Below, in pieces: positions 3,001-17,823 of a DNA stretch of 64,000 nt (the first letter of the stretch is position 1; every line of letters begins with the position of its first letter). Below the pieces are notes generated by a model, which saw only the letters and a program-made list of their open reading frames with translations, was not told the origin of the DNA and did not search any database. The DNA lies in the NCBI GenBank assembly GCA_021790425.1, contig JAJYEA010000007.1, positions 696 through 64,695 on the forward strand, in the 5' to 3' direction. Position numbers and translations under genes: made by a program. Source of the DNA: Thermoplasmata archaeon (GTDB taxonomy: Archaea > Thermoplasmatota > Thermoplasmata > Lutacidiplasmatales > UBA184).

Positions 3001-3317
3001 CCTACGGCTGGAAGCTCAGTTCTTCGCTCGGCAGTCTCTCGGCCGCGAAGGGCGTCTCCACCACGTTCGAGGCGGGGTTCGACCCGGGCAAGGTCACGGT
3101 GACGGTGTCGGCAACGTTGAACCAGACCACGGTGAACGCCTCGACGGTCGTCACCATCATCGGGACCTCTTCGGGCGGTGGCGCGAGCCAGCCCACGCTA
3201 CCGGCGGGGGTCGTCTACCTGTTGGTGGCGGCGATTGCCCTCGCCGCGATACTGTTGATCTTCGTGCTCTATCGCCAGCGCCGACGCCCCGCTCCGCCGA
3301 CCCCCCCAACGGGGTAA
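1..3317 (+). CDS. Large cell-surface glycoprotein, 5'-truncated by the window edge, with ~9 tandem ~95-aa Ig-like repeats and a C-terminal TM anchor
   Basis: The reading frame is open from nt 3 with no stop before the ATG at 72, so the gene starts upstream of the window. Each repeat carries a CxGGxCPxGxxYxW(S/N)LTN ... LFVNATL motif. There are dozens of NxS/T sequons. The C-terminus is a hydrophobic helix (LLVAAIALAAILLIFVLY) followed by RQRRRP. GC3 is high. Confidence 0.8.
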   Translation, partial: TAGDYGGGGYGGVNGADPCSGPCMESDGVPYLVDNIGQITQGITEKNVGVTSSSHVTFSMVDYFSNQGADHDDGDGSEYNVDVSAFQPATSFATTVSSMASGNTLFGRNWVSSIQVYGDSDFSDNFLSSSMITALYGGLHGSGLSWVNNASTYHVVVLVGSTLPRDAKYQGSWCPTYNDYTNACPDLSSTSEPAYTYGSGLSEPAGENISDIVTLAQQEHVLIDTIDLPDGMTEMGSRDYVNTSATTAYVAKDVRAILGAGCYLAQATGGSWEGPTPGYSGVGFTCAAAATHNSKGNLTNTFRPASGGSFGWSTNPALGWALTNVAFPAFTTNYTVIGWVKEQTFVFDPSTNFVIDPTQAMTFDCINNGTVVTSKCAAAANSSLGGGGWTWSWPYPAMYPNDMWSVSLTVNVSSTFNQSQLNTPVSVDACLNNTYWTGCPGPTSGNFYSWVQYTNITHVSVIQSFPPAFVDVASNGVVPSLASVSVSPPNATLMAGANQTFTAIPTCSGGTCPTGTSYYWSMTNASMGYLNTFTGPTVVFTSSGSTGSVALFVNATLYSVTQSSSPVPIAVSPSVRLSAVSVTPNPVQMQVNTSQGFSATPSCTGGTCASGTTYVWNLTNSLATLVSSTGSSVVVTAGASAGNVTLFVNATLSGTTVMSRPTNITITVMPPPTLASVAVTPTFAQLTVGQTANFTAVPLCGSQSCSPTPTYSWTLTSASYGSLNSNVGNPVMFSATAAGTVTLFVNATLRGTTVRSNPIPITVQAIPPLIGVTISPPSDTLPAGHVQSFAASPSCTGSCPTGITYFWTLTNSKASLNTSLGDVVTLTAGPNAGVVNVFVNASLGSVTRQSSPAPITITIASNPLTGVSVSPGSWSLSYPASTTFNASITCTSGPCPSGTVYSWSLTNLNYASIASATGSTAVVQSANATGTTTLFVNATLGNVTKMSAPVPISVQGITAAPVTLDSVTLSPGAPTVNEGATQVFTALPTCSATPCPTGITYGWKLSSSLGSLSAAKGVSTTFEAGFDPGKVTVTVSATLNQTTVNASTVVTIIGTSSGGGASQPTLPAGVVYLLVAAIALAAILLIFVLYRQRRRPAPPTPPTG

Positions 3318-3690
3318 GGCACCCGGAGCCCGCGGGTCCCCGGGATATCGACGTTGGCGTCTACGCCTCCTGGTGCCTTTCGTCCCCGTTTTGCACGGTT
3401 CGCGGGACGCAAACAATGGAAGGACACGGCGCGTTGCGTTCTGTAACATTTGAGCACTTACTTTAGAATAGTTGTAATCGCAAGTGATGAGCCAGTGACC
3501 GACCCGGTATATGAAACTGACAACTGAATTGTGCCCGCGCCGACAAAAGTACCGAGCACAATGTAGCGTTACGTTTTCAGCGGTCGAAATCACGCGGAAT
3601 GCGCTGTGACCGTTCCCGTGGTGGCGTACGGAAGTTAGGGAAAGACCATATCCCCTCTTGCCCATTATTTATGCAAGGAGGAAAGCTCGA

Positions 3691-4212
3691 GTGACGCGCG
3701 AAGAAACAATGAACGCCGAAGCTATGGATGTCACTCTCCTCCCCAAATCCGGGTCCTCCCGGGAGACCATCGAGCCCCAGTCCGTCTGGGTCTGCGAGGA
3801 GTGCGGCCGCCGGGAACGGATCCATCCGATGGGATGTCCCGAGTGCGGCTCTTCGGACTTCCGACTCGTCGTCGGGTTCAGCGACGACCTCACCCGGCGC
3901 CCCGTTTCCACCCGCGGAGTGCTCTCCCGGAGGGAGAAGTCCGATGTGGCCGTGATGGACCGCACCACCGGGCCGTCCGACCGCGAGCGGATCACGGTCT
4001 CCGCGAACGTATTCTCCTTCACCCCGGGAAGGTCGGACGGGGTCGACGTTCCCTATCCGGAGGAGGACCGTTCGGGAAAGCCTCGGATCTCCGCCCCCTG
4101 GTCTTCCCGGCCCAGCACGCGCTTTCGCACTCCCCCTCCCGCGCGACGCCCGCGCAAGAGCCTCGTGAGCACCCGCCCTCGCGTCGGGCGTCGCTCGCGT
4201 CAAAAGCGGTAG
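3691..4212 (+). CDS. Small zinc-ribbon protein (CEECG...CPECG) with a basic, low-complexity tail
   Basis: An AGGAGG Shine-Dalgarno at 3676-3681 sits 9 nt before the GTG at 3691. An ATG at 3709 is also possible; the track's TTG at 3658 is unlikely. A CxxC-x13-CxxC zinc-ribbon motif is present. Confidence 0.45.
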   Translation: MTREETMNAEAMDVTLLPKSGSSRETIEPQSVWVCEECGRRERIHPMGCPECGSSDFRLVVGFSDDLTRRPVSTRGVLSRREKSDVAVMDRTTGPSDRERITVSANVFSFTPGRSDGVDVPYPEEDRSGKPRISAPWSSRPSTRFRTPPPARRPRKSLVSTRPRVGRRSRQKR

Positions 4213-4911: not shown

Positions 4912-4983
4912 TGGACGTGGAGGGATTTGAACCCTCGGCCTCTGCTTTGCGAAAGCAGCGATCTTCCGCTGATCTACACGCCC
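4912..4983 (-). tRNA. tRNA-Ala (anticodon CGC)
   Basis: Manual cloverleaf: acceptor GGGCGUG/CACGUCC with the G3:U70 Ala identity pair, D-arm GAUC-AGCGGAA-GAUC, anticodon stem CUGCU/AGCAG around loop UUCGCAA, T-arm GAGGG-UUCAAAU-CCCUC, discriminator A. CCA is not encoded. Confidence 0.85.
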
Positions 4984-5621: not shown

Positions 5622-6197
5622 ATGCACCAGGTCCAGCGACGGCGGGGGTCTCCATCGACCGCCCGGGGTCAACCTTCCCTCTTCGGCTCCGCCCGGGGCA
5701 TTCGTATCCGGCCCGCCACGGTGAGGGACCTCGAGACCCTCCGGGCCCACCGTCGGGGGATGTTCGTGGACATGGGGGTGGCCCCTTCGCGATCGTTGGA
5801 TGGTCACGACCGACGCTTCATCCCATGGGCGAGGGCCCGGCTGCGCAAGGGGGAGCTCTTCGGGCTCATCGCGGAGTCCCGCGACGGCGTCCCCGTGGCG
5901 AGTGGATGCGTCTGGTTACGGGAGGACCAGCCCCGTCCCTGGACGGAGCGCGAGCGGTCCCCGTACATCATGTCGATCTACACCCTGCCGGAATGGCGGC
6001 GCCGCGGTGTCGCCAATCGGATCGTCCGGGGGCTTCTCCGGGCCTGCCGTCGCCAGGGGTATCCGATGGTCCGGTTGAACGCTTCCCGCATGGGCCTGTC
6101 GGTCTACGAGGGCCTCGGTTTCGAGCGGACCACGGAGATGCGCCGCTGGTTGGACCCCTCCCGGAAACGCGCGTACTTCTCGAAGCGTAGGGGATAG
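5622..6197 (+). CDS. GNAT-family N-acetyltransferase
   Basis: Acetyl-CoA binding core YIMSIYTLPEWRRRGVANRIVRGLL...GLSVYEGLGFE. The start is taken at the ATG at 5622; the track's earlier start at 5589 is GC-rich lead-in. Confidence 0.75.
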   Translation: MHQVQRRRGSPSTARGQPSLFGSARGIRIRPATVRDLETLRAHRRGMFVDMGVAPSRSLDGHDRRFIPWARARLRKGELFGLIAESRDGVPVASGCVWLREDQPRPWTERERSPYIMSIYTLPEWRRRGVANRIVRGLLRACRRQGYPMVRLNASRMGLSVYEGLGFERTTEMRRWLDPSRKRAYFSKRRG

Positions 6198-6226
6198 TCA
6201 TTTTCTCCTCCTCTGCCCTACGGTCG

Positions 6227-6454
6227 GTGAGGTGGATTCCCGTGGCAGAAGACCGGTGGGCCGAGACCGCGATGAAACTCGAGGAGCTGCGCCAGCAGGT
6301 GGAGGCGCTCAAGAAGCAGCAGGCGGCCCTCATCACTGAGGTGGACGAACTGCTCCAGACGTTCCGGTCCCTGGCGATGCACATGGGTGTCGTCACCGAA
6401 GGCTACAAGTCGGGAGGGAAGAAGTCGACCGCCCCGCCCACGGGTTTCGCCTGA
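6227..6454 (+). CDS. Small coiled-coil protein (hypothetical)
   Basis: 75 aa with the heptad-like stretch MKLEELRQQVEALKKQQAALITEVDELL; it sits in the + strand run between GNAT and the deacylase. Weak. Confidence 0.3.
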   Translation: MRWIPVAEDRWAETAMKLEELRQQVEALKKQQAALITEVDELLQTFRSLAMHMGVVTEGYKSGGKKSTAPPTGFA

Positions 6455-6456
6455 GC

Positions 6457-7266
6457 GTGCACCTTCTACTCCTGAGCCAACCCGACCCGGTCGCCCGCGG
6501 GGTCGGGGAGCTCATCGGAGAGGGGACCCCCACCTCGTGCCACGTGGCAGGAGCGACGGTGCACCTGGTGGCCCCGAACCTGATGGCGGTCAAGCGGCCC
6601 GACTGGCACATCCGGGACGAACGGCTCGTCCAGGAGCTTCCCGCCGCCCTGCTCGCCCGCATCGATGCGATCATCTTCCCCTCGGTGCACCAGAGCGAGA
6701 GCCGCCGTCCCTGCCTGACGGTCCATCCGGTGGGCAACCTCACCGACGACGTCAGCGTGGGGGGGCGGCCCCGGACGGTGAACCCTGTCCCGGCCCTCCT
6801 GATGACCGAGGCCTTCCATCGGCTGCGGGAGGAAGGTGCCCGGGTCGGGATGGAGGCCACCTTCGAGGCCACGCATCACGGCCCTGCCCTTCCGGTCCCC
6901 TGTTTCTTCATCGAGGCGGGCAGCACGGAGACCGAGTGGAACCGGACGGACCTTCATCGGGCCATCGCCGACTCCCTGCTTGGCCTCCCCGACACGCTAC
7001 CCGAGCGGCCCATCGTGCTCGGGTTGGGGGGCGGGCACTACATGCCCTACTTCAAGGACCTCGTGCGTCGGCGGAGTGTCGCGCTCGGCCACATGGTTCC
7101 CACCCACCACCTCCCGGGGGTCACCCGGGAGTTCGCGCAGCAGCTCGTCCAGGCAAGCCCGGGGGCCACGGGCCTAGTCTACGCCAAGACGAAGGACCGT
7201 ACGGGCTCCCCGTTCGAGGGGCTCATGCCCTCCCTCGCTGAAGGGGAGCTCCCGAACGCCCCCTGA
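6457..7266 (+). CDS. Putative archaeal-type D-aminoacyl-tRNA deacylase (DTD2/DtdA-like)
   Basis: 269 aa with a GGGHY motif and the length and architecture of the archaeal tRNA_deacylase family; recalled from memory, not searched. Confidence 0.5.
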   Translation: MHLLLLSQPDPVARGVGELIGEGTPTSCHVAGATVHLVAPNLMAVKRPDWHIRDERLVQELPAALLARIDAIIFPSVHQSESRRPCLTVHPVGNLTDDVSVGGRPRTVNPVPALLMTEAFHRLREEGARVGMEATFEATHHGPALPVPCFFIEAGSTETEWNRTDLHRAIADSLLGLPDTLPERPIVLGLGGGHYMPYFKDLVRRRSVALGHMVPTHHLPGVTREFAQQLVQASPGATGLVYAKTKDRTGSPFEGLMPSLAEGELPNAP

Positions 7267-8540: not shown

Positions 8541-8613
8541 AGCCGCGGGAGGGATTTGAACCCTCGACCTGCTCCTTACCAAGGAGCCGCTCTGCCTGCT
8601 GAGCCACCGCGGC
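8541..8613 (-). tRNA. tRNA-Thr (anticodon GGU)
   Basis: Manual fold: perfect acceptor GCCGCGG/CCGCGGC, D-arm GCUC-AGCAGGCA-GAGC, anticodon stem GCUCC/GGAGC around loop UUGGUAA, T-arm GAGGG-UUCAAAU-CCCUC, discriminator U. Confidence 0.85.
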
Positions 8614-8621
8614 GCGGACCG

Positions 8622-9683
8622 CTAGGCGCGTGTCCCGTTCCGGTTGCGAGCGGGGAGAAGATAGGGGGCCAGGGCGGCCCTCCAGGTCTCCTCCACCAAC
8701 TTCTGGTAGGTGTTGAAGCTCTCCACCGAGAGCGTGAGCATCTGGTTCAGGAGTTCGGCTCCCTCCGCCGAGTAGCCGGTGGAGAGAACGCCCTGCCCCT
8801 TGTCGCGGACGACGAGCTGGGCCTCGCGGGAGGCCTCATCGAAGGCATCGGTCGAGTTCTTCCAGGGCTGGCCCCTCCGCATCCGGTCCCAGTCCACGCG
8901 GTCGGTGAACTGGGCCGGGCGCTTGTCGAGGAACGCACCCATCCCTTCCTTCTGGTCGTGGCTGGAGAAGAGGATCTGCCAGAGGTCCCGCTCGTACTCG
9001 AGCCCGAGGAGCCGGGTGGCGTCGGAGGCCTGGTTCACCGCGTACTTGGCGGCCGCCATCGCGAGGGCCCCCTTCGAGGCCAGCTGCTGCGCGAGGCCGA
9101 TCGCCTCCTCCAGGAGCTTCTTGGGGGGGACCACGGAGTGGACCAGCCCGTCCGCGTAGGCGTGGGCCGCGCTGAACTTCTGTCCGGTGAAGATCCAGTG
9201 GCGCGCCCGGGCAACCCCGATGGCCCGGGTGAGACGCCGGGAGCCTCCCCATCCCGGGATGACCCCGATGTTGATCTCGGGCTGCGCGAACTGGGCATCC
9301 TCCGCCGCCACGATGAAGTCGCAGGAGAGGGAGAGCTCGCATCCTCCGCCCAGGCAGTAGCCCCGGACGGCGGCAATGACGGGCACGGGGGCCCGTTCGA
9401 TGAGGTTCGTGAGCGCCTGCCCCTTGCTGGAGTAGCGCGCCGCCTCTTCCGGGCCGAGGGAGGCCATCTCCTTCACGTTCGCCCCGGAGGAGAACGCCTT
9501 GTCGCCGGAGCCCGTGATCACGATGGCACGCACCGTCGCGTCCCGCGTCAGCTCCACCACGGCGCCGGCGAGGCCGTCCACCACCGGTGTCGTGAGCACG
9601 TTGAACGGTGGATTGTTGATGGTAACGACTGCGATGTTCCCCACTCGGCGCACGAGCACCGGGTCGGAAGGGGCGGCGGACAT
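8622..9683 (-). CDS. Enoyl-CoA hydratase/isomerase (crotonase family) with a ~95-aa C-terminal extension
   Basis: Crotonase core AVVTINNPP...GSGDKAFSSGANVKE...GYCLGGGCELSLSCDFIVAAEDAQFAQPE...GMGAFLDKRPAQF. The start is taken at MSAAPSD (9683); an A/T-rich element lies ~25 nt upstream. Confidence 0.8.
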   Translation of the reverse strand: MSAAPSDPVLVRRVGNIAVVTINNPPFNVLTTPVVDGLAGAVVELTRDATVRAIVITGSGDKAFSSGANVKEMASLGPEEAARYSSKGQALTNLIERAPVPVIAAVRGYCLGGGCELSLSCDFIVAAEDAQFAQPEINIGVIPGWGGSRRLTRAIGVARARHWIFTGQKFSAAHAYADGLVHSVVPPKKLLEEAIGLAQQLASKGALAMAAAKYAVNQASDATRLLGLEYERDLWQILFSSHDQKEGMGAFLDKRPAQFTDRVDWDRMRRGQPWKNSTDAFDEASREAQLVVRDKGQGVLSTGYSAEGAELLNQMLTLSVESFNTYQKLVEETWRAALAPYLLPARNRNGTRA

Positions 9684-9751
9684 GGAGAGGGCCAATCTGC
9701 GTTGGCTTTTTAGCTTACTGCCGTCCCCGACGGATCCCCGGGCGCGCACCA

Positions 9752-10879
9752 TCACTTCGCCGGGGTCTTCCGGAACCACTCGGCAACCCGGGGCCACAGC
9801 TCCCGGTGCGCCCGGCGGCTGACGGAGAGACCGATGTGCCCCGACTCCTGCTGGAACCGGGCCTTCTCCTGGCTCCGGACGAGATCGAGGATCCGGTTGG
9901 TGCTCTCAGCCGGGATGATATTGTCCTGGGTACCGGTGATCGTCGCGATCGGCATCGTGATCTTCTCGAGCTGGACCCGGCGGCCTCCCAGTTCCCAGGT
10001 TCCCCGGACGAGCCGGTTCTCCTGGTAGCCGTTCCGGACGAACTCGCCGTAGGTGGGTCCCGGCATGGGGATCCCGTCCCGGTTCCAGTACTCCATCCGG
10101 AGGAAGTTCGCCACGAAGTCGGAGTCCTCCACGTGGAGGATCAGCTCGCGATACTTCTGGTAGCTGTTCTTGAACGGATCGAGGTTGTCGAAGGCGAGGT
10201 TGAAGAACTCGGGGGGGACCATCCCGAAGGTCGATCCGATCTTCACCGGGTCGAACCCGGGCGCCTTCGCCCAGACGTTGAGGAAGCTCCCGTCGACGTC
10301 GAAATCGATCCCTGCCGCCAGGAGGGCCAGGCGCGCCACCTTCTCGGGGTGGAGGGCGGTGTACATCGCCATGAAGGAGCCCCCCATGCAATAGCCCAGG
10401 ACCCCGATCTGGTCCTTGCCCGAGGTCTTCCGGACCGCGTTGACGCACCGGTCGACGATCCCGTTGACGTAGTCGTCCACGGTGAGCGAGGCGTCCAGCT
10501 CCGTCGGGGTTCCCCAGTCCACGAGGTAGACGTCGAGACCCCCCCGGAGGAGGGTCTCCACCACGGAGAGGCCGGGCTGGAGGTCCATGATGTAGGGCTT
10601 GTTGATCAGCGCGTAGACGAAGAGGACGGGCGGTCGCGCCTTTCCCTTCCACTCCGGCGGCGCGTCGTAACGGAGGACGGACGTGTGGCCCTCCCGGTAG
10701 ATGACCTCGTGGGGGGTCAGCCCGGCCGGGACCTCGGGCGGATCGAAGGCCATGGCCATCACTCGGCCCAGTCGTTCGTAGAAGTCGTGGAGGGCCTCCA
10801 GCGATGCGGTCCCATCGACGGGGCCCCCGGCCGGCAGGCCGGTCGGGGACGGTGCAGGATCTCTGCGTGCGGCGGGCAC
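9752..10879 (-). CDS. phaC: Class III poly(3-hydroxyalkanoate) synthase catalytic subunit PhaC
   Basis: ~375-aa alpha/beta-hydrolase with the lipase box GYCMGG, Asp/His downstream, and the size and features of class III PhaC. It is adjacent to a phaE-like gene. Confidence 0.8.
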   Translation of the reverse strand: MPAARRDPAPSPTGLPAGGPVDGTASLEALHDFYERLGRVMAMAFDPPEVPAGLTPHEVIYREGHTSVLRYDAPPEWKGKARPPVLFVYALINKPYIMDLQPGLSVVETLLRGGLDVYLVDWGTPTELDASLTVDDYVNGIVDRCVNAVRKTSGKDQIGVLGYCMGGSFMAMYTALHPEKVARLALLAAGIDFDVDGSFLNVWAKAPGFDPVKIGSTFGMVPPEFFNLAFDNLDPFKNSYQKYRELILHVEDSDFVANFLRMEYWNRDGIPMPGPTYGEFVRNGYQENRLVRGTWELGGRRVQLEKITMPIATITGTQDNIIPAESTNRILDLVRSQEKARFQQESGHIGLSVSRRAHRELWPRVAEWFRKTPAK

Positions 10880-10901
10880 AGTGGAGGTAGGGGGAGCTTT
10901 C

Positions 10902-11696
10902 CTACCTAATCTTGTCTTCGAGGCGGCTCACCTTGTTCGCAAGCTCCGCGAGGCTCTGCTGGAGCTGGGCGATCTCCTTCTTGGTGGGGAGCGGGGACAG
11001 GTTGGCGAGGGCCCCTCCCGTCTCCTTCAGCTGGCGCTGGAGGTCGAGGCTCGCATCGAGGGTCTTCCCGAAGAGGGTGACGAAGGGCGGGCTCGTGAAG
11101 TACGAGTAGGTCAGCTTCCGGAAGTTCTCGGCGAAGTCCTTCATCGACTCCTCCTGGGTGCGGACGAAGTCCTCGAACTTGACCTGCGGCGCGAAGGAGG
11201 CCATGGCCTTCTCGTAGAGCTCCTTGGAGAGACCGGACCAGAACTTCTGCGTCATCTCGGCGTACTCCCGGACCTGGTCGGCCGGGTTCTGGGACCCTCC
11301 CGTCTGGGCCTTGCTCCAGTTCTCGAAGAGCTGCTTCTGGAGGTCCTGGCCGGTCGTGAAGGCCGCGGTGACCTTCTGGCCGATCTCCTGGGCGAGCTCG
11401 TTCCAGTCCCGGAACCGCTCCCGGATCTCCTCGACGTCGGGGACCGACTGGCGGGGCTTCATCTGGTCGCGGAGCGACGCGGCCCACTTCTCGTAGTTCT
11501 GCTGCTGCTCGTCACCGAACCGGCGGACGAACTCGCTGGTGGTCGTGCCGACCTCCTTCGCGAAGTTGAGCCAGACCCGGAGCGATTCCTCGGCCGGGTT
11601 GGTGTTCCGGCGGGGGGACGCCGCGGGGGCCTCGGTCGTTTCGGTCGTCGGGGGCGTCTTGCGCACGTTCTGGGTCTTCTTGGTTGCCATCTTCAT
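10902..11696 (-). CDS. phaE: PhaE-like PHA synthase subunit
   Basis: 264 aa starting MKMATKK, with GGAGGA immediately upstream. It is hydrophilic and helix-rich with a C-terminal coiled coil (LSPLPTKKEIAQLQQSLAELANKVSRLEDKI), typical of PhaE. It lies directly upstream of phaC. Confidence 0.55.
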   Translation of the reverse strand: MKMATKKTQNVRKTPPTTETTEAPAASPRRNTNPAEESLRVWLNFAKEVGTTTSEFVRRFGDEQQQNYEKWAASLRDQMKPRQSVPDVEEIRERFRDWNELAQEIGQKVTAAFTTGQDLQKQLFENWSKAQTGGSQNPADQVREYAEMTQKFWSGLSKELYEKAMASFAPQVKFEDFVRTQEESMKDFAENFRKLTYSYFTSPPFVTLFGKTLDASLDLQRQLKETGGALANLSPLPTKKEIAQLQQSLAELANKVSRLEDKIR

Positions 11697-12010
11697 TCCT
11701 CCTTCTGAGTTTGCTTGACAATGTTTCCGACCATGCCGGAGATGGTCTCCGTCCCGGTCGGGACCTTCCACCAGTTGGGAAGGGTCGCTCCGAGTCGCTG
11801 GAAGAGGGCGACCTGCTCCTCTCCCGCGCGGGTCACCTGCCGGAGCCCGAACCAGTAGTATTCGAGAAGGTCCTTCTGGACGTTCTTGGTCCAGTCCAGG
11901 TAGGCCTCCAGTTCCTGCAGGTATAGGTCCGAGGCCTTGGACACGGCCTCGCCGACTTCCTTCCACGCCGCCGTCGTCTGCCCGAGTTGTTCCTGTACTG
12001 TTTCGCTCAT
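11693..12010 (-). CDS. Small phasin-like protein (105 aa) of the PHA operon
   Basis: An ATGA start/stop overlap at both ends (with the phaB stop and the phaE start) implies translational coupling. It is helical, with W/Y-rich amphipathic segments. Its position matches phaP in haloarchaeal phaR-phaP-phaE-phaC clusters. Confidence 0.45.
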   Translation of the reverse strand: MSETVQEQLGQTTAAWKEVGEAVSKASDLYLQELEAYLDWTKNVQKDLLEYYWFGLRQVTRAGEEQVALFQRLGATLPNWWKVPTGTETISGMVGNIVKQTQKEE

Positions 12011-12753
12011 AGATACATGCCCCCATTCAGATTGAGGACTGCGCCCGTGATGTAGTCGGCATCGGGGGAGAGGAGGTAGACCACGCTCCGCGCCACCTCC
12101 CGCGATGTGCCGAACCTTCCCATCGGGATCTGGGCCAGGATCTTGTCCCGCACCTTGTCGGGGATCTTCTGGACCATCGGAGTGTCGATGAAGCCGGGGG
12201 CCACGACGTTCACGGTGGTGCCCTTGGGGGCGAGTTCCCTCGCCAGGGCCTTGGCGAACCCGATGATGCCGCTCTTGCTGGCGGCATAGTTCACCTGGCC
12301 GAAGTTCCCCATCTGGCCGACCACGCTCGAGATGGTCACGACCCGGCCGTGACCGCTCGCCACGATCTCTTCCACGAAGGCCCGGGTGGTGTAGTAGACC
12401 CCGGAAAGGTTGACCTTGATGACGTCGTCCCACTGGGCATCCGTCATCTTCGTGAAGAGGCTGTCGCGATTGATCCCCGCCGCGTTGACCAGGCAGTCGA
12501 TGCGGCCGAACTTGTCGTGGACCTCCTCGGTCATCCCATTCATCCCCTCGGGACTGTCCAGCTCGCCGTGAACGGCCACACACTTGCGGCCCATCCCGCG
12601 GACCTCGGCGACCACCCGGTCGGCCTCGTCCTTGTGGGTGTGGTACTGAATGGCGACGTCGGCGCCCTCGGCGGCCAAGGCACGCACGATCTCGACCCCG
12701 ATCCCCCCGCTTCCCCCCGTCACCAGGGCCCTGCGGCCGGCGAGAAGGGTCAT
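12007..12753 (-). CDS. phaB: Short-chain dehydrogenase/reductase; acetoacetyl-CoA reductase (PhaB)/FabG-like
   Basis: The motifs TGGSGGIG, NAAG and a YAASK catalytic tetrad; 248 aa; PHA operon context. Confidence 0.8.
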   Translation of the reverse strand: MTLLAGRRALVTGGSGGIGVEIVRALAAEGADVAIQYHTHKDEADRVVAEVRGMGRKCVAVHGELDSPEGMNGMTEEVHDKFGRIDCLVNAAGINRDSLFTKMTDAQWDDVIKVNLSGVYYTTRAFVEEIVASGHGRVVTISSVVGQMGNFGQVNYAASKSGIIGFAKALARELAPKGTTVNVVAPGFIDTPMVQKIPDKVRDKILAQIPMGRFGTSREVARSVVYLLSPDADYITGAVLNLNGGMYL

Positions 12754-13058
12754 CGGCGGTCCCCTGACTTGGACCCCGCCTTGGGGTTCCGTTCGCCTTC
12801 CCGGGGCGTCTCGGGCTGGGCGATGAAGAGCTTCTGCAGGGCGAGGTAGCCCTCCAGCGAGCGCTTGACCTGCTCCTGGACGGCATCCTCGAGGTCCTTG
12901 AGATAGTCCTCAGGAGAGGCGAAGCCCTTACCGGGTTCTCCCGGTAGGATCACGAGGACCTCCTTGCCTGCCAACTCACGAAGGCCGCTGACCTGGCCGT
13001 TGGGGCTGACACGCCGTGTGCCGATGATCTTGCCCCCTGCTCCGAGTTCGATCCGCAT
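12750..13058 (-). CDS. AbrB/SpoVT-family (swapped-hairpin) DNA-binding protein, PhaR-like regulator candidate
   Basis: The N-terminal MRIELGAGGKIIGTRRVSPNGQVSGLRELAGKEVLVIL resembles the AbrB/MazE looped-hinge helix fold. It is the first gene of the operon and overlaps the phaB start by 4 nt. A TATA-like gtatataatg lies ~40 nt upstream. Confidence 0.6.
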   Translation of the reverse strand: MRIELGAGGKIIGTRRVSPNGQVSGLRELAGKEVLVILPGEPGKGFASPEDYLKDLEDAVQEQVKRSLEGYLALQKLFIAQPETPREGERNPKAGSKSGDRR

Positions 13059-13096
13059 AGGTCAGTGTATGGCGCACAGCATCCCACATCAGCGCA

Positions 13097-13106
13097 GTAT
13101 ATAATG
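13097..13106 (-). promoter_or_regulatory. TATA-box-like element upstream of the PHA operon (AbrB-like gene start 13058)
   Basis: gtatataatg (palindromic TATATA) ~40 nt upstream of the first operon gene on the minus strand. Confidence 0.4.
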
Positions 13107-13270
13107 TCTGGCTGCGGAGGGTGTCCAAACGAGGCCCTCGATCGATGAACTTGGGTAGAGGCGGGGTTGAGGTCCAACGGGGTGCGCGTTCCTCGGCGGG
13201 AGCGCAGATCGAAGCAGCGTCTTTCCCTGTATGGGTGAGTGTGAATTTGATAGTGTCTAATCGGTGTGCG

Positions 13271-13280
13271 ACTTATATAC
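13271..13280 (+). promoter_or_regulatory. TATA box for pilin-like paralog A
   Basis: acttatatac centred ~23 nt before the ATG at 13298, suggesting a leaderless mRNA. Confidence 0.45.
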
Positions 13281-13297
13281 CCCTGTCATCATATAAC

Positions 13298-14041
13298 ATG
13301 CCGATGTCAGCTAGGGGGATTTTTGGTCGAAAGACGAAGCGCGGGGGAACACGCTGGGTCAGCCTCTTGCTTGGGGTGGGGATCGTCTTGGTGACGGGCA
13401 CGGTCCTGGCCGACGTGGTACTGACGTATACCTTGAACAACAGCGTGGGAAGTTCGAACACCAGCCCGTTCGAGTGGGAGGAGGGGACGAACTATGCCGC
13501 GGCGAGCTCGCTCTCGATTGTCTCTAACACTTGCAACCCAAGCAACATGGGTGCCACAAATCCTACGAACTGCTTTGCTCTTTCGATGACCGTTAATGGC
13601 GTTTCTTACGTTCCGACAACGGTTGCTGATGCTGTCCACTTCCAGTGGCTGGCCACCAGCGCCACGGTAGCGACGAGCGTGGGCACCGGGGTCCTGTCTG
13701 TCGTTACCACCGCTAACACACTTCCGGCTGGCTCGTGTGCCTGGGCTTTCATATCCAACGGCGCGCTGACGGCAACCAGTTTCACGTACACCGCCGGCAC
13801 TCCGTGCTCCGTGAGCGCGGCCGCACCAGCTTCGGTCTATACGGCTTGTGGCGCGTCGACGGCAGCAACGGCTTCCGTTAATCTGCTGACGGGTGCCGTG
13901 AACGGTGCAGTCACTTGCTCTATCGCCAAGGCGACCGCCGCCGGCTCCGCCTTGGACATTAGCTACTTCGTCTACGTTCCCGGCGGTGCGGTTGCTCCCC
14001 AGGGTGTCGCAAGCCTGTACCTTTCCCCTGTCCTTAGTTGA
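13298..14041 (+). CDS. Secreted/anchored Thr-Ser-Ala-rich protein, paralog A of a tandem pilin-like trio
   Basis: N-terminal basic stretch (GRKTKRGGTR), hydrophobic helix, then ADVVLTYTLNNSVGSSNTSPFEWEEGTNYAAAS. A TATA-like acttatatac lies ~23 nt upstream, consistent with a leaderless transcript. Confidence 0.6.
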   Translation: MPMSARGIFGRKTKRGGTRWVSLLLGVGIVLVTGTVLADVVLTYTLNNSVGSSNTSPFEWEEGTNYAAASSLSIVSNTCNPSNMGATNPTNCFALSMTVNGVSYVPTTVADAVHFQWLATSATVATSVGTGVLSVVTTANTLPAGSCAWAFISNGALTATSFTYTAGTPCSVSAAAPASVYTACGASTAATASVNLLTGAVNGAVTCSIAKATAAGSALDISYFVYVPGGAVAPQGVASLYLSPVLS

Positions 14042-14045
14042 GGGG

Positions 14046-14855
14046 ATGGTCGTGAAGACATCTGAGAAGGGAAAGCTGGAGCAGGGGGTCCGACGGGGGA
14101 GGGAGCGGCGCAGGCGGCGCTTCCTCTGGGGCGCCCTGCTGCCACTCCTGGTGGGGGGGGCGATGATCGGGTCAATTGCTGTCGCCGATGTGATTCTGTC
14201 CTATCAGGCCACTTCGTCAGTGGGGGCGAACGTCAACACGAACTACTACTGGCAGGACGGAACAAACTATGCGGTGGCTCACGCCGACAACTTCGTGACC
14301 ATCGCCTGTTCGGGGGCTACTCTTGCGACGCCCACCACGTGCGGCGGAACGGCCACTCCAGCGGGGCAGTCGACGGAGACGATCACCCTGAACGGGGTTC
14401 AGTCCGCGGCGGTCTACGATGTGCAGCTGACGGAATTCGCGGTGGTCGCGGGCTTCCCCGCGGCTGGCCAGACGTTCAACCTCGGGGCCGTGCTGGCGAC
14501 CACGACGATCACGGGACCCACGTGCGTATACGTCTTCATCACGACGGTGGCCCCCAGCGCACCCGCCTCGCTCTCCACTGCGGTGCCCTCGAACCAGCCC
14601 GTGGGGTGCGGGCTCTTCGAGCCCACGGTCGCGAGCGGGGATGAGGAGGACATAAACCTCATGACCGGGGCGATCAGCAATCCCGCGACCGGACAGGCCG
14701 GAGTGACGTACATCGGAGCCGGCGGCGACTTCTACCTGAACCAGGTCCCGTTCGGCGCCGCCACTCCGCTCCTCTACATCTCGATGGCGGTCGTGTCGTC
14801 CGCTACGGCTCCGGCCGGCTCCGCGACGTTCTTCGCGAACCCTGTGGTGACGTAG
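14046..14855 (+). CDS. Paralog B of the tandem pilin-like trio
   Basis: Starts 4 nt after the paralog A stop. It has RRRRRFLWGALLPLLVGGAMIGSIAVADVILSYQATSSVGANVNTNYYWQDGTNYAVAH, and the conserved WxxGTNYA block is shared with A. Confidence 0.6.
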   Translation: MVVKTSEKGKLEQGVRRGRERRRRRFLWGALLPLLVGGAMIGSIAVADVILSYQATSSVGANVNTNYYWQDGTNYAVAHADNFVTIACSGATLATPTTCGGTATPAGQSTETITLNGVQSAAVYDVQLTEFAVVAGFPAAGQTFNLGAVLATTTITGPTCVYVFITTVAPSAPASLSTAVPSNQPVGCGLFEPTVASGDEEDINLMTGAISNPATGQAGVTYIGAGGDFYLNQVPFGAATPLLYISMAVVSSATAPAGSATFFANPVVT

Positions 14856-14872
14856 AAGAGAAGGGTCGGTCG

Positions 14873-15550
14873 ATGAAGGGGGGGAAGGGTCGCCGCCGCG
14901 TCAGCCAGGCGGCCCTTCTCGTCGGCTTTTTCTTGGTTTTTGTCTTGGTCTCGGGTGACGTCGGTCTTGCCGGCGCTGACATGATCTCTTCTTATTCGGA
15001 TCATCCGGGAGCGGCGAACCACGCGGCACCCGCGCCGCTGACCGTGAACAACAACAATGTGCGGGTCCGGTGCCGAGCCCTGTTGGTGACCGTGAGGATC
15101 ACGAGCACGGTCAACGCCGCAGGCACCCAGGGGGTCATCACGATCAACATTCCCGCTCGATGCGCGGGAGTGGCGTTGGCGGCATTCCACAATCCTGGCC
15201 TGCTCTTCCGAAGCGTGAACAACATGGCCACGGGGATGTCCCTCACGTCCAACCCCCCATGGACCGCGCCCGGGACGGGTCAACTGACGCTCTGCGTGGC
15301 TCGTCAGAACAGTCCGTGCCTGACCACCACCATGGTCCTGATGAGCGGGAGCAGCTCGGGGCCGACCTCGGTGGTGGCGGTTGCGAACGCCCGCAACTTC
15401 GGTCCCTCGGTGCAGGTGACTCAGGGGATGGGGGCGGGGACCTCGGCCACGGTCGGACTCGACCTCTATCAGGATTTCCGCAACACGGCGACGGGGGACT
15501 ATGCGGTGATCCAGGTCGATCACGTCACCCTGGTGGTCAATCAAGCTTAA
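14873..15550 (+). CDS. Paralog C (more divergent) of the tandem pilin-like trio
   Basis: KGRRRVSQAALLVGFFLVFVLVSGDVGLAGADMISSYSD, with a TM helix after the basic N-terminus and an ADMISSY motif; Thr/Ser/Ala/Gly-rich. Confidence 0.55.
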   Translation: MKGGKGRRRVSQAALLVGFFLVFVLVSGDVGLAGADMISSYSDHPGAANHAAPAPLTVNNNNVRVRCRALLVTVRITSTVNAAGTQGVITINIPARCAGVALAAFHNPGLLFRSVNNMATGMSLTSNPPWTAPGTGQLTLCVARQNSPCLTTTMVLMSGSSSGPTSVVAVANARNFGPSVQVTQGMGAGTSATVGLDLYQDFRNTATGDYAVIQVDHVTLVVNQA

Positions 15551-15576
15551 CAGGGCTCATGCCCTCGTGATGTCAC

Positions 15577-16797
15577 GTGGTAGAGACGGGGGGGGATCTC
15601 CATAACCGGGCCTTCGTGGCGGGCCTCCTGCTGGTGGGCTCTGCCGCGGTGGTCTGGGGGCTATACCTCCTCCTGACCGGGGATACGATCGATGCCCCGG
15701 CCATCTTCGCGATCGCGATCGGGGGTTCGATCCTCGTCGTGACCGCGTTCTTCATCATCCCCGAACTGAGTTCTGCTCCCGCCCCCGTCCCCCTACCGCT
15801 CGTTGCCGCCTCCCCCTCTTCGAACCGTCTCCCCATCGAAACGATGCGGGAGTACCTTACCCTCCTGAGCCAGGCCGAGGAGAAGTGGCTGAAGCATCTG
15901 GACGCGGTCACCTCCGCCCAATCCGCTCCGGCGCCTGGCCCGGCTCCCCGGGTGGTCCCCGTCGCTGTCGCTGCCCCGCCCCGGGAGACGCTTGCGGCCA
16001 AGTCGGTGGACGAGCGCGTGGAATCCGAGCTCCTGGCCTTTGACACGGCGATACAGACCGGAATGAAGCGCCGGGCGAATGAGGATGCCCTCTCCTACGT
16101 GGGCCGGGTGCAGGCGGACCGGCCGGCGGGGTCCCGTTCCCTCCCTCCGGTCACTGCCTCCGTAGCTGCGGAGAGCATGGTCGAGGACCTTCTGGAGGCC
16201 CACCGCACCCTTCCATCCCGTTCCCTCAGCCAGTTGGGCGAGACGATCCAGGAGCGGGTGAACCAGGTGGGCGCCTCCGTCGGGGTAGGCCGTTCACCGG
16301 GCGAGCCGATGATGGACTACGCGAACCGGCTTCGCTCCAAGCTCACGGCTCCCGCACCGCCTCCGGCCGCCAAGCCCACCCTCGACTTCATTCTCCGTCC
16401 CCCCGCGCGGCCGGCCGCCGGGGTTGCCGCCGCTCCCAAGCCGGCCCCGCCCGTCTCCCCACCGCCCGGGCAGAATCCCGGGCTCACCTGGGCCCTGGCG
16501 CTCTACCGCGGGTTCCTGCAGAACTACTTCAACCCCACGGAGATCGACCAGCTGTCGAAGGATGTGGTGGCCTCGAGCTCGGGGACGCCGCGGGGCGCGC
16601 GTTCCGAGGAGGAGCTGCTGATGTACAGCCGGCTGGTGAAGAATGCCATTCGGGCCTCCCAACGCACCTCGCGCGCACCTTCGGAGGTCGACAAGGTGCT
16701 CAGAGAATTCGACCAGTTCGTGGAGCTCCTTCACGCGGCGCAGGCTCCGCCCACTCCCCCGGCCCGATCCCCGCCCCGCAGTTCCACGCCGGCCTGA
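15577..16797 (+). CDS. Membrane protein with two N-terminal TM helices and a long Pro/Ala-rich region (hypothetical)
   Basis: GTG start 26 nt after paralog C. Two TM helices (AFVAGLLLVGSAAVVWGLYLLL and IFAIAIGGSILVVTAFFIIP) are followed by PAPAPxP-type repeats. 406 aa. Confidence 0.5.
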   Translation: MVETGGDLHNRAFVAGLLLVGSAAVVWGLYLLLTGDTIDAPAIFAIAIGGSILVVTAFFIIPELSSAPAPVPLPLVAASPSSNRLPIETMREYLTLLSQAEEKWLKHLDAVTSAQSAPAPGPAPRVVPVAVAAPPRETLAAKSVDERVESELLAFDTAIQTGMKRRANEDALSYVGRVQADRPAGSRSLPPVTASVAAESMVEDLLEAHRTLPSRSLSQLGETIQERVNQVGASVGVGRSPGEPMMDYANRLRSKLTAPAPPPAAKPTLDFILRPPARPAAGVAAAPKPAPPVSPPPGQNPGLTWALALYRGFLQNYFNPTEIDQLSKDVVASSSGTPRGARSEEELLMYSRLVKNAIRASQRTSRAPSEVDKVLREFDQFVELLHAAQAPPTPPARSPPRSSTPA

Positions 16798-16842: not shown

Positions 16843-17286
16843 ATGGCCACGCATCTCCCCCCCGTCTCGCCCGGTCGCTCATCCCCTGGGGCGATCCACG
16901 AGTGGGCGCTCGCCGCGGAGGAGCCCCTCCCCCACCGTCGTGAGGTGGAGGAGAAGGACGAGACGGACGAGGGGGAGTATCCCCTCTTCCGTGGGGTCCT
17001 GCTCGGAATCGCCATGGTCACGGTGGCGGTCGCCGGGCTGACCTTCTTCCAGCACGGAAACCTCGAATACGTGCTCGCCGGCATTGCGGCGGGGATCGTG
17101 CTCTACGTCACGACGGAGCTCATGGTGCCGTTAGAAACTCATGCCCGCAAACCGGAGGATGTCGAGGATCCGGAGGAGCCCGACGAGCGTCATGAGGAAG
17201 AGGGGAATGGTGGCGAACCCGATGGTCCGGAGCCCGAGGAGCGCCTGTCCGTGCCGCGCCCGGAGCTCCACCCCGACGGCCAGTAG
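16843..17286 (+). CDS. Possible small membrane protein (questionable)
   Basis: The N-terminal half has two hydrophobic helices. The acidic C-terminal half is the antisense of the Leu-rich end of the DUF2085-like gene and is probably artefactual extension. Confidence 0.25.
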   Translation: MATHLPPVSPGRSSPGAIHEWALAAEEPLPHRREVEEKDETDEGEYPLFRGVLLGIAMVTVAVAGLTFFQHGNLEYVLAGIAAGIVLYVTTELMVPLETHARKPEDVEDPEEPDERHEEEGNGGEPDGPEPEERLSVPRPELHPDGQ

Positions 17287-17823
17287 CACGAGGAAGAGCC
17301 CCGCGGGGAGCAAGATGGCCGCGGAGGGCAGGAAGGGGGACAGGAGGAGTGCCGCGAGGGTACCTACCACCGCCGCCCGGCCCAAGACCTCCCGGTCGTG
17401 GGCCTTCTCCTGGAGCAGGTAGGTCCCGAGGAGCAGCGAGCTCAGGAGGCAGGTCGCGAGCAGCATCCCGTAGAGCACCCAGGTCAGGACAGGGCTCACG
17501 AAGGGGAGGATGTAGCTGTCCACCACCTGCGGGAAGAAGAGGAACAGGATCGAGAGCCCCGCGGTGAAGGTGAAGAGGAAGATCGGCAGGGCCGGGATCA
17601 CGTTCACGGTGCAGGGTTCGACACAGTAGCCCCGCCGGAGCAGCGCGGGCTCGTGGAGGCAGGTACGGCAGAACTCCCGCTTGTGCGGGACTCCGTGGCG
17701 GCTCGCCCGCCAGAGGAAGACGGCCAGGGTCGTGGAGAAGCACCCGCTGATCAGGAGGGGGAGCGCCACGATCCAGAGATTGTCCCAGGCGATGACGAGC
17801 GCGCCGGCCACGGGGGATAACAT
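17131..17823 (-). CDS. Polytopic membrane protein with CxxC motifs (DUF2085-like)
   Basis: Start MLSPVAG. HKREFCRTCLHEP...GYCVEPC, then four or more TM helices. Confidence 0.6.
   Translation of the reverse strand: MLSPVAGALVIAWDNLWIVALPLLISGCFSTTLAVFLWRASRHGVPHKREFCRTCLHEPALLRRGYCVEPCTVNVIPALPIFLFTFTAGLSILFLFFPQVVDSYILPFVSPVLTWVLYGMLLATCLLSSLLLGTYLLQEKAHDREVLGRAAVVGTLAALLLSPFLPSAAILLPAGLFLVLLAVGVELRARHGQALLGLRTIGFATIPLFLMTLVGLLRILDILRFAGMSF

Follow-up and report, generated by a model that had tools for sequence, protein, structure and literature searches.

The window analysed here is a 64,000-nt stretch of DNA from a Thermoplasmata archaeon (positions 696 to 64,695 of contig JAJYEA010000007.1, assembly GCA_021790425.1). 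Its G+C content is 62-72%, and relatives of its genes were found in metagenome-assembled genomes (MAGs) of Thermoplasmata and Candidatus Lutacidiplasmatales. The window contains a locus of six genes, here called A, B, C, D, F, and E, that encode three secreted pilin-like proteins (A, B, and C) and three membrane proteins (D, F, and E). The original prediction, made from the sequence of the window, had described A, B, and C as a trio of plus-strand genes separated by 4-nt and 17-nt spacers and followed by D. This description agreed with our analysis, but the interval given for the locus (13059-16797) ended too early, as F and E also belong to the module. The features of the locus are listed below (aa, amino acids; TM, transmembrane).

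13273-13279, plus strand: TATA-like element TTATATA, read directly from the sequence, 22 nt 5' of the ATG of gene A.
13298-14041, plus strand: gene A, 247 aa, putative major exposed pilin.
14046-14855, plus strand: gene B, 269 aa, putative second shaft or adaptor subunit.
14873-15550, plus strand: gene C, 225 aa, putative minor subunit (nucleator, cap, or tip).
15577-16797, plus strand: gene D, 406 aa, two-TM hairpin protein.
16843-17286, plus strand: gene F, small two-TM protein.
17131-17823, minus strand: gene E, a protein of about 230 aa for which six TM helices are predicted.
13496-14114, plus strand: strain-variable cassette (head of A from residue 67, A-B junction, and B signal peptide).

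The gaps between the first four genes are short (A-B, 4 nt, 14042-14045; B-C, 17 nt, 14856-14872; C-D, 26 nt), a GAGGGG Shine-Dalgarno-like site precedes gene B, and A, B, and C are putatively co-transcribed. The TTATATA element suggests a leaderless or short-leader transcript; a sigma-70/terminator scan of the window was uninformative for an archaeon. In the public annotation, gene A (298 aa, P0001) begins at 13145, 51 codons 5' of the start of its homologs, which start at a Met equivalent to 13298. Since the TATA-like box lies inside the 13145-13297 extension, and in view of the homolog starts, we favoured the start at 13298, and the public call is probably too long.

Relatives of the pilin-like proteins were scarce. 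Among 5.8 billion proteins, A gave 4 matches and B gave 8, and a profile search of 1.84 billion cluster representatives retrieved 47 proteins; the family comprises about 45 clusters. Its members are mostly 200-280 aa long, with a few fragments, and carry the common N-terminus followed by S-P-F-x-F-x-x-G-x-N-Y-x-x-A. One candidate, P0046 (1334 aa, 12 matched stretches), was rejected as a probable compositional false positive, being an unrelated protein of near-identical tandem repeats. No Pfam domain was found in 50 family sequences, and A-F gave nothing meaningful against Pfam, NCBIfam, and PHROGs. The locus had been put forward as a candidate novel one, and the family was indeed described in none of the libraries searched.

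A, B, and C each begin with a basic segment and one hydrophobic helix, directly followed by the motif already noticed in the original prediction: ADVVLTY in A (13409), ADVILSY in B (14184), and ADMISSY in C (14975). In a six-frame scan of the 64 kb, the pattern A-D-[VM]-[VI]-x-[ST]-Y was confined to these genes, with one occurrence in each (mean of 0.01 in 100 shuffled sequences). The helices are uncharged, and the basic n-regions are followed by sites of the signal peptidase I type, predicted as VLA/DVVLTY in A, AVA/DVILSY in B, and AGA/DMISSY in C (a slash marks the cut). Gene A thus reads as a general secretory (Sec)-type signal in residues 1-38 (...TVLA/D), an N-terminal tail DVVLTYTLNNSVG, and a head in residues 58-247; the signal and tail read ...IAVA/DVILSYQATSSVG in B and ...LAGA/DMISSY in C.

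The same organisation was found across the family, where position -1 was A or G and position -3 was V, G, A, I, or T in all 49 members, and position +1 was D or E in 45 of them. Because the motif lies 3' of the helix and shows the -3/-1 pattern of signal peptidase I, the helix is best regarded as a removable Sec signal rather than a retained pilin helix, and A, B, and C are predicted to be cleaved by this enzyme at A-x-A/D. Class III (type IV pilin) signals are cleaved before the hydrophobic stretch, at [KR][GA]. A regular-expression scan detected no such site before the helix in A, B, or C, and detected one in a single family member out of 49, so the class III, type IV pilin or archaellin-like signal proposed at first was not supported. 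Beyond the site, hydrophobic residues are conserved in an alternating pattern along the tail (V40, L42, Y44, A/L46, and V50 in the family alignment), as expected for a buried strand, and the tails of A and B are putative donor strands. D39 and N65 are nearly invariant in the same alignment. No C-terminal sorting signal (PGF-CTERM/PEF-CTERM, or LPXTG with a TM helix) was found: A, B, and C end in ...LSPVLS, ...ANPVVT, and ...VVNQA, with no C-terminal hydrophobic segment.

BLASTP shows A and B to be paralogs (E value 3e-15, 31% identity across 240 residues), and both carry the W-x-x-G-T-N-Y-A motif reported at first (WEEGTNYA in A, WQDGTNYA in B). No similarity of the C body to the A or B bodies was detected by BLASTP or hhalign, and C aligned with the A/B profile over the signal peptide and tail only (41 columns, hhalign probability 91.7%). 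The three genes had been presented as paralogs; mutual homology was thus confirmed for A and B, but for C it is restricted to the signal peptide and tail. The locus thus combines a single N-terminal module with two types of head. The bodies of the three proteins are rich in Ala, Ser, Thr, Val, Gly, and Asn, much as described previously, and contain 6, 4, and 4 Cys, respectively. Mature A has a single Lys or Arg and mature B none; the product of gene C is basic (isoelectric point 8.9). The sequon N-x-S/T occurs 2, 0, and 0 times in A, B, and C. The near absence of Lys and Arg and the even number of Cys in A and B would fit exposed extracellular proteins resistant to acid and proteases.

The two paralogs differ in their variability between genomes, with 61-75% identity for B in most homologs (47% in the most divergent) and 38-57% for A. 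A sister contig (L003; locus numbers are given here where loci must be told apart) is 98.3% identical to the window over the 9.6 kb before the cassette, but the blastn alignment ends at 13495 (residue Y66 of A) and resumes at 14115. Realignment past this cassette, whose L003 counterpart spans 9627-10274, gave 90.6% identity inside B, and A and P0003 share 44% aa identity overall. The breakpoint falls directly after the conserved N65-Y66 of A, so that the signal and tail are kept and the head is exchanged. Such a pattern resembles the outcome of allele replacement, or of diversifying selection acting on an exposed subunit, and a strain-variable head together with the composition described above would be typical of an exposed extracellular subunit. 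The exchange of A heads between strains suggests selection on the fibres by viruses or for surface specificity.

A structural model of A was built with AlphaFold2 (AF2) on a 50-sequence alignment, a 12-sequence alignment having given a mean predicted local distance difference test (pLDDT) of 55, too poor to use. The model (pLDDT 80.4, predicted template-modelling score 0.73) has a helical signal, an unstructured, low-confidence segment at residues 34-57 (the tail), and a 13-strand beta domain at residues 58-247; this modelling, suggested along with the original prediction, thus yielded a beta-rich pilin-like head. In a Foldseek search of 350,542 Protein Data Bank (PDB) chains, the top match was 7ueg_A (Pyrobaculum AbpA; E value 6.2e-5, probability 1.00, target-normalised TM-score 0.55), followed by 7pnb_A (Sulfolobus acidocaldarius thread subunit Saci_0406; E value 1.4e-3, probability 1.00, target-normalised TM-score 0.47). 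All further matches, which include FimG, CfaB, and CanA, had probabilities of at most 0.33. These results point to a predicted beta-sandwich or jelly-roll head for A, similar to those of AbpA and Saci_0406.

The second of these proteins also resembles A and B at the N-terminus. Saci_0406 is cut by signal peptidase I at ...VLVA/DVIYYYQGQITVG, the mature Asp24 is visible in the cryo-electron microscopy structure, and the N-terminal strand is the donor strand (PMC9715654). The amine of Asp24 forms an apparent isopeptide link to Asn57 of the subunit two places along, and thread homologs do not differ in the first seven residues of the mature protein (PMC9715654). We took the Saci_0406 sequence from the supplement of that paper and corrected it against the PDB. 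Aligned on the site, Saci_0406 reads VLVA/DVIYYYQGQITVGNVAPPMYF, B of the window IAVA/DVILSYQATSSVGANVNTNYYW, and A of the window TVLA/DVVLTYTLNNSVGSSNTSPFEW. B and Saci_0406 share 9 of 17 residues across the cleavage site (pairwise BLASTP E value 0.023), the family profile aligned with Saci_0406 over the signal and tail (40 columns, hhalign E value 7.5e-5, probability 62%), and a divergent low-G+C subgroup aligned with it at a probability of 69%. The uncharged run before the site is also of similar length, with a median of 19 residues in the 49 family members versus 18 in Saci_0406. These similarities hint at shared ancestry, for the N-terminal module at least, but do not prove it, and the heads of A and B, judged from the model of A, would be related to that of Saci_0406 at the level of fold only.

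The membrane proteins D, F, and E gave no meaningful match in Pfam, NCBIfam, or PHROGs, and the E profile matched no PDB sequence. Gene D encodes two TM helices (residues 14-32 and 43-61 in a TM scan) separated by a short acidic loop, and several Pro/Ala-rich linkers, in keeping with the two-TM protein with a long PAPAP-type linker of the original prediction; the remainder of the protein combines these linkers with conserved K/R-rich helical segments such as LTWALALYRGFLQNYF. Homologs of D were detected by tblastn at 31-43% identity in L004-L012, L006, and L019. Since D combines two TM helices and a short acidic loop with a K/R-rich soluble part, both termini and the bulk of the protein are probably cytoplasmic. 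On this inferred topology, a cytoplasmic location of the bulk is more likely than a role as an external anchor; D may act as a scaffold, anchor, or regulator.

Gene F has a conserved core at about residues 46-105 (LFRG...AVAGLTF.QHGNL.YVL). F and E are convergent and overlap by about 156 nt, so that the acidic tail of F is the antisense reading of the hydrophobic C-terminus of E; this tail may be read-through. F of L019 ends about 25 residues after its second TM helix. In E, the loop that joins TM1 to TM2 is K/R-rich, probably cytoplasmic, and contains an invariant C-x2-C...C-x3-C; N14, Q137, R143, E185, and R189 are invariant as well. None of the protease signatures sought in E was conserved (the paired Asp of A24, the Ser/His of rhomboid/S26, the Glu/His of CPBP, or the Cys/Arg/His of archaeosortase). 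E was found in L001, L004-L009, L011, L012, and L019, the copy in L001, the most divergent cluster and in another genomic context, being 41% identical to that of the window (E value 2e-42), and E was linked to pilin genes in every high-G+C locus of the window clade long enough to show it.

A search for the motif family and its neighbours, proposed together with the original prediction, revealed a recurring module of pilin and membrane-protein genes, in all cases in Thermoplasmata/Lutacidiplasmatales MAGs. It was seen in five genomic settings.

Setting 1, beside polyhydroxyalkanoate (PHA) genes (the window and L003): full A-B-C-D-F-E order.
Setting 2, beside aldo-keto reductase/PAC2 genes (L004/5, L008/9/11, and L012): full A-B-C-D-F-E order.
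Setting 3, near rpl15e (L001): A-B-D-E, without F and without a recognisable C.
Setting 4 (L006): D, an unrelated 160-aa protein, B, F, E.
Setting 5 (L019): three A-like genes with C, D, E, and F, the E/F pair inverted.

C is retained in the same position in L004/5, L008/9/11, L012, and L019. In L001, a divergent upstream gene with an SSDVALRY motif showed no significant similarity to the A/B and C profiles. Depending on the genome, 2 to 4 pilin-like genes are present; in L019, two extra A-like paralogs (638-2114, minus strand) lie upstream of the module and have Asn instead of Asp at +1 (...LG/NVILTY and ...IA/NVVLTY). The inverted E/F pair of L019 retains its convergent arrangement. In agreement with the original prediction, no Pfam domain of a prepilin peptidase, secretion ATPase, or sortase was found within about 10 kb on either side of the locus, and no PilB/ArlI ATPase, PilC/ArlJ platform, or A24 peptidase was present within about 10 kb in the window or the Pfam-annotated loci (L019 was screened by tblastn with the window proteins only). 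The absence of adjacent machinery holds for these domains, but the conserved membrane proteins E and F had been overlooked.

We consider it probable that the locus encodes a strand-donation (donor-strand-complementation) surface pilus similar to the Sulfolobus thread and the Pyrobaculum bundling pilus. The view that the locus is dedicated to secreted pilin-like proteins and plausibly to a surface filament was thus retained. The most likely interpretation is that it encodes strand-donation pilins of a new, Sec-dependent family together with accessory proteins that are also new, within a class that is itself known; this is a prediction from sequence and a structural model. The signals are predicted to be ordinary Sec signal peptides, which had been named as a possible argument against a filament, but they do not refute it, because export by Sec and cleavage by signal peptidase I also apply to the thread and bundling pili whose structures were solved experimentally (PMC9715654, PMC9245690).

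The sequence features, the A/B paralogy, the resemblance of the A model to AbpA and Saci_0406, and the linkage of the genes across genomic contexts were observed; from these we infer the following scheme for processing, fibre growth, the part of each subunit, and any part of D, E, and F. A, B, and C would be made with Sec signals, exported, and cut after A-x-A by the general signal peptidase I, which would bare an N-terminal Asp and the conserved beta-strand tail (DV[VI]L[TS]Y...). This tail would enter the incomplete beta-sandwich head of the next subunit, and a thin, adhesive fibre would grow head to tail. A would be the abundant, strain-variable exposed subunit and B a conserved second shaft or adaptor subunit; C, with the same tail on another, basic head, would be a minor subunit, acting as nucleator, cap, or tip. 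D, F, and E would be membrane proteins anchoring or organising the assembly. One tail on differing heads in three adjacent co-oriented genes matches the pattern of major and minor subunits in the thread (Saci_0405/0406), TasA/TapA, and Tafi loci, for which cap or nucleator proteins have been proposed (Saci_0405 in threads, TapA for TasA, and TafC/TafE in Tafi; PMC9715654, PMC11821415).

The thread (Saci_0406, PDB 7PNB/8RZL, arCOG10215; PMC9715654, PMC11607397) shares with A and B, as predicted here, a Sec signal cut by signal peptidase I at ...VA/DV, an N-terminal Asp, and a tail in which a conserved Tyr in a beta-strand is followed by a VG pair and a P-x-[YF]-F element. It also shares with the locus a beta-sandwich head, as modelled for A, an adjoining paralog or minor subunit, uncharacterised neighbour genes, and no need of a prepilin peptidase. 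It differs in its host (Sulfolobales versus Thermoplasmata) and in its smaller head (160 versus about 190 residues), the heads studied here having Cys pairs able to form disulfides. The bundling pilus of Pyrobaculum calidifontis (AbpA, 7UEG; PMC9245690) has a jelly-roll head and an N-terminal donor strand, as predicted for A, is Sec-dependent and processed by signal peptidase I with no dedicated peptidase nearby, and, like the locus described here, includes in its operon several multi-TM proteins with no assigned role. However, AbpA matures at AMA/TL and lacks the D-V-x-x-x-Y tail, and no TapA/AbpB-like gene was recognised in our locus. The Tafi clusters of Haloarcula and Natrinema (PMC11821415, PMC12337348) likewise encode multi-subunit strand-donation fibres, with major, adaptor, and tip-like subunits and membrane proteins, but use twin-arginine translocation (Tat) signals, a dedicated S26 peptidase (TafD) with TafG, and a TafF anchor; no Pfam-recognisable S26 peptidase or DUF5305 protein was found in the locus and no sequence relationship was detected. 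In bacterial chaperone-usher pili (FimA/FimG, CfaB; weak Foldseek matches, probability 0.16-0.33), the N-terminal strand completes the beta-sandwich of the neighbouring subunit, as proposed here, but the chaperone, usher, and outer membrane are absent in this case and no homology was detected.

Several observations weigh against the assignment to strand-donation pili. The TM-scores of the A model to solved pilins are moderate (0.43-0.55, root-mean-square deviation 7-9 Å) and come from a predicted model. A matched no PDB sequence, nor did the 50-sequence profile at E values up to 10, and the similarity to Saci_0406 is limited to the signal and tail, with modest significance. The +1 Asp is not universal, since some paralogs have N, T, or S at this position. 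The thread has YYY where the A/B family has a single invariant Tyr, and five N-glycans where we counted 0-2 sequons; no equivalent of the isopeptide Asn57 was identified in the A/B family. The models for TasA and its relatives, PF12389 (Peptidase_M73) and TIGR04088, did not match A, B, and C at E values up to 10 or 50 family members at E values up to 0.1. The original comparison with TasA and SipW-cognate proteins had therefore pointed to the right structural class, but these two models did not recover it; no TasA-type SipW/S26 signal peptidase was found in any locus by Pfam annotation, and no TapA-like protein was recognised. Finally, little of D, E, and F lies outside the membrane, which makes it hard to see how these proteins could retain a fibre.

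The best-surviving alternative, which we nevertheless regard as rather improbable, is that A, B, and C are surface proteins that do not polymerise (adhesins, coat, or matrix), either released after cleavage or held by an uncleaved anchor, the juxtamembrane motif being a sorting or processing signal read by E, D, or F rather than a donor strand. The uncharged stretch is long enough to span the membrane, the tail is disordered and not docked in the monomer model, the conserved membrane proteins have no assigned role, and variability of the head between strains suits any exposed surface protein. Yet the small residues kept strictly at -3 and -1 are needed by signal peptidase I and not by an anchor, the motif is conserved to +12 with alternating hydrophobic residues, beyond what a cleavage site needs, and the best structural matches are specifically polymerising pilins. 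Moreover, a near-identical site is cleaved experimentally in Saci_0406 (PMC9715654). The strand-donation reading was preferred on these grounds.

It is much less likely still that the proteins are secreted enzymes (camelysin/M73-like proteases) or jelly-roll structural proteins of viruses or mobile elements. TasA relatives do include camelysin (PMC9245690), birnavirus VP2 was among the weak Foldseek matches (E value 0.04 or worse), and one distant family member adjoins a D5-type primase (L018, described below). Against this explanation, no Pfam, NCBIfam, or PHROG match was obtained, the A model had no match in the BFVD viral structure library at E values of at most 0.001, and no relatives of the queries A1 and P0052 were found in 2.9 million IMG/VR viral contigs. 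The window locus lies among housekeeping genes, and the proteins, rich in Ala, Ser, Thr, and Val and almost free of Lys and Arg, gave no positive sign of an enzyme, although no specific search for catalytic motifs was made. Type IV pilins or archaellins, assembled through N-terminal helices after processing by a prepilin peptidase encoded elsewhere, are cell-surface proteins too and show a superficial resemblance in their short basic N-terminus, single hydrophobic helix, and beta-rich body, but we give this last explanation almost no weight, as they are cleaved on the opposite side of a helix that they keep, the conserved motif follows the helix in A, B, and C, the fold matches belong to another class (jelly-roll strand-donation pilins), the [KR][GA] site is missing as noted above, and no PilB/PilC/PibD-type gene (ATPase, platform, or peptidase) was found in or around the Pfam-annotated loci.

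Other observations were made at loci of distant family members. In L018 (Joint Genome Institute 3300020479, low G+C), the family member P0052 lies with a tandem paralog at 5724-6906; N-x-S/T sequons are frequent in both proteins, and the two genes adjoin one for a D5_N/DUF5906 primase-helicase (1450-3792). The pair had no PHROG match and no IMG/VR relatives, and neither P0052 nor its neighbour was significantly similar to Saci_0406 by BLASTP; the adjacent gene suggests that the pair may be carried on a mobile element or provirus. In L020 (8001-11042) and L021 (6410-9310), one of them at 35% G+C and the other at 66%, a pilin-like gene is flanked by a gene for a heavily sequon-rich secreted protein of 500-540 aa. 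In L020, this protein has a similar signal and tail (...GSVVTGYNY), and the next gene encodes an unrelated six-TM protein. The architecture of a pilin, a large tip-like protein, and a TM protein appears analogous to that of the window locus, with no detectable homology to D or E; comparisons of the 238-aa TM protein of L020 with E, and of its 536-aa secreted protein with the family, were not significant. The complete module in L011 (JAKBKR010000003.1) was deposited as "MAG: bacterium isolate DX1.bin10". This label is suspect because the contig carries RadA, archaeal XPG/FEN, and PAC2 genes and is nearly identical to Thermoplasmata MAG contigs, which suggests that the taxonomic assignment is wrong.

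In the window itself, the locus is flanked by a minus-strand PHA-synthesis cluster on one side and a DUF255 thioredoxin-like gene on the other. The PHA cluster, of class III type (8622-13058, minus strand, directly 5' of the pilin locus), encodes two small proteins besides an enoyl-CoA hydratase, a PhaC-like alpha/beta hydrolase, a PhaE-like protein, and a short-chain dehydrogenase. Synteny of the cluster extends to L003 and L015, but it is absent at the remaining pilus loci and is therefore considered unrelated to the module. The sole Rfam or ARAGORN matches in the window were tRNA-Ala(CGC) at 4912-4983 and tRNA-Thr(GGT) at 8541-8613, both on the minus strand.

It was not until 2022 that strand-donation pili (threads, bundling pili, Tafi, and cannulae) began to be recognised in archaea. 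Their structures, in the literature that we searched, came from Thermoproteota and haloarchaea, and Thermoplasmatota were represented only by PF12389 hidden Markov model hits (Methanomassiliicoccales). All elements of the present locus are predicted and its hosts are uncultured, which limits its significance. If our reading is correct, the strand-donation class would extend to the Thermoplasmata of acid soils and mine drainage (Lutacidiplasmatales-like), and the locus would define a protein family invisible to Pfam and NCBIfam. The thread-type A/DV... N-terminus would recur in a distant lineage, and the shared A/D-V-x-x-x-Y tail raises the possibility of a thread superfamily spanning Thermoproteota and Thermoplasmatota, perhaps with conserved N-terminal covalent cross-linking. 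How archaeal threads and bundling pili are assembled and anchored is an acknowledged open question, and D, F, and E would be tightly linked candidates for the missing machinery. A tentative proposal, which we regard as doubtful at present, is that these three proteins, E above all, make up a membrane apparatus devoted to processing, nucleating, or anchoring such pili; if true, they would be the first candidate assembly platform for archaeal strand-donation pili.

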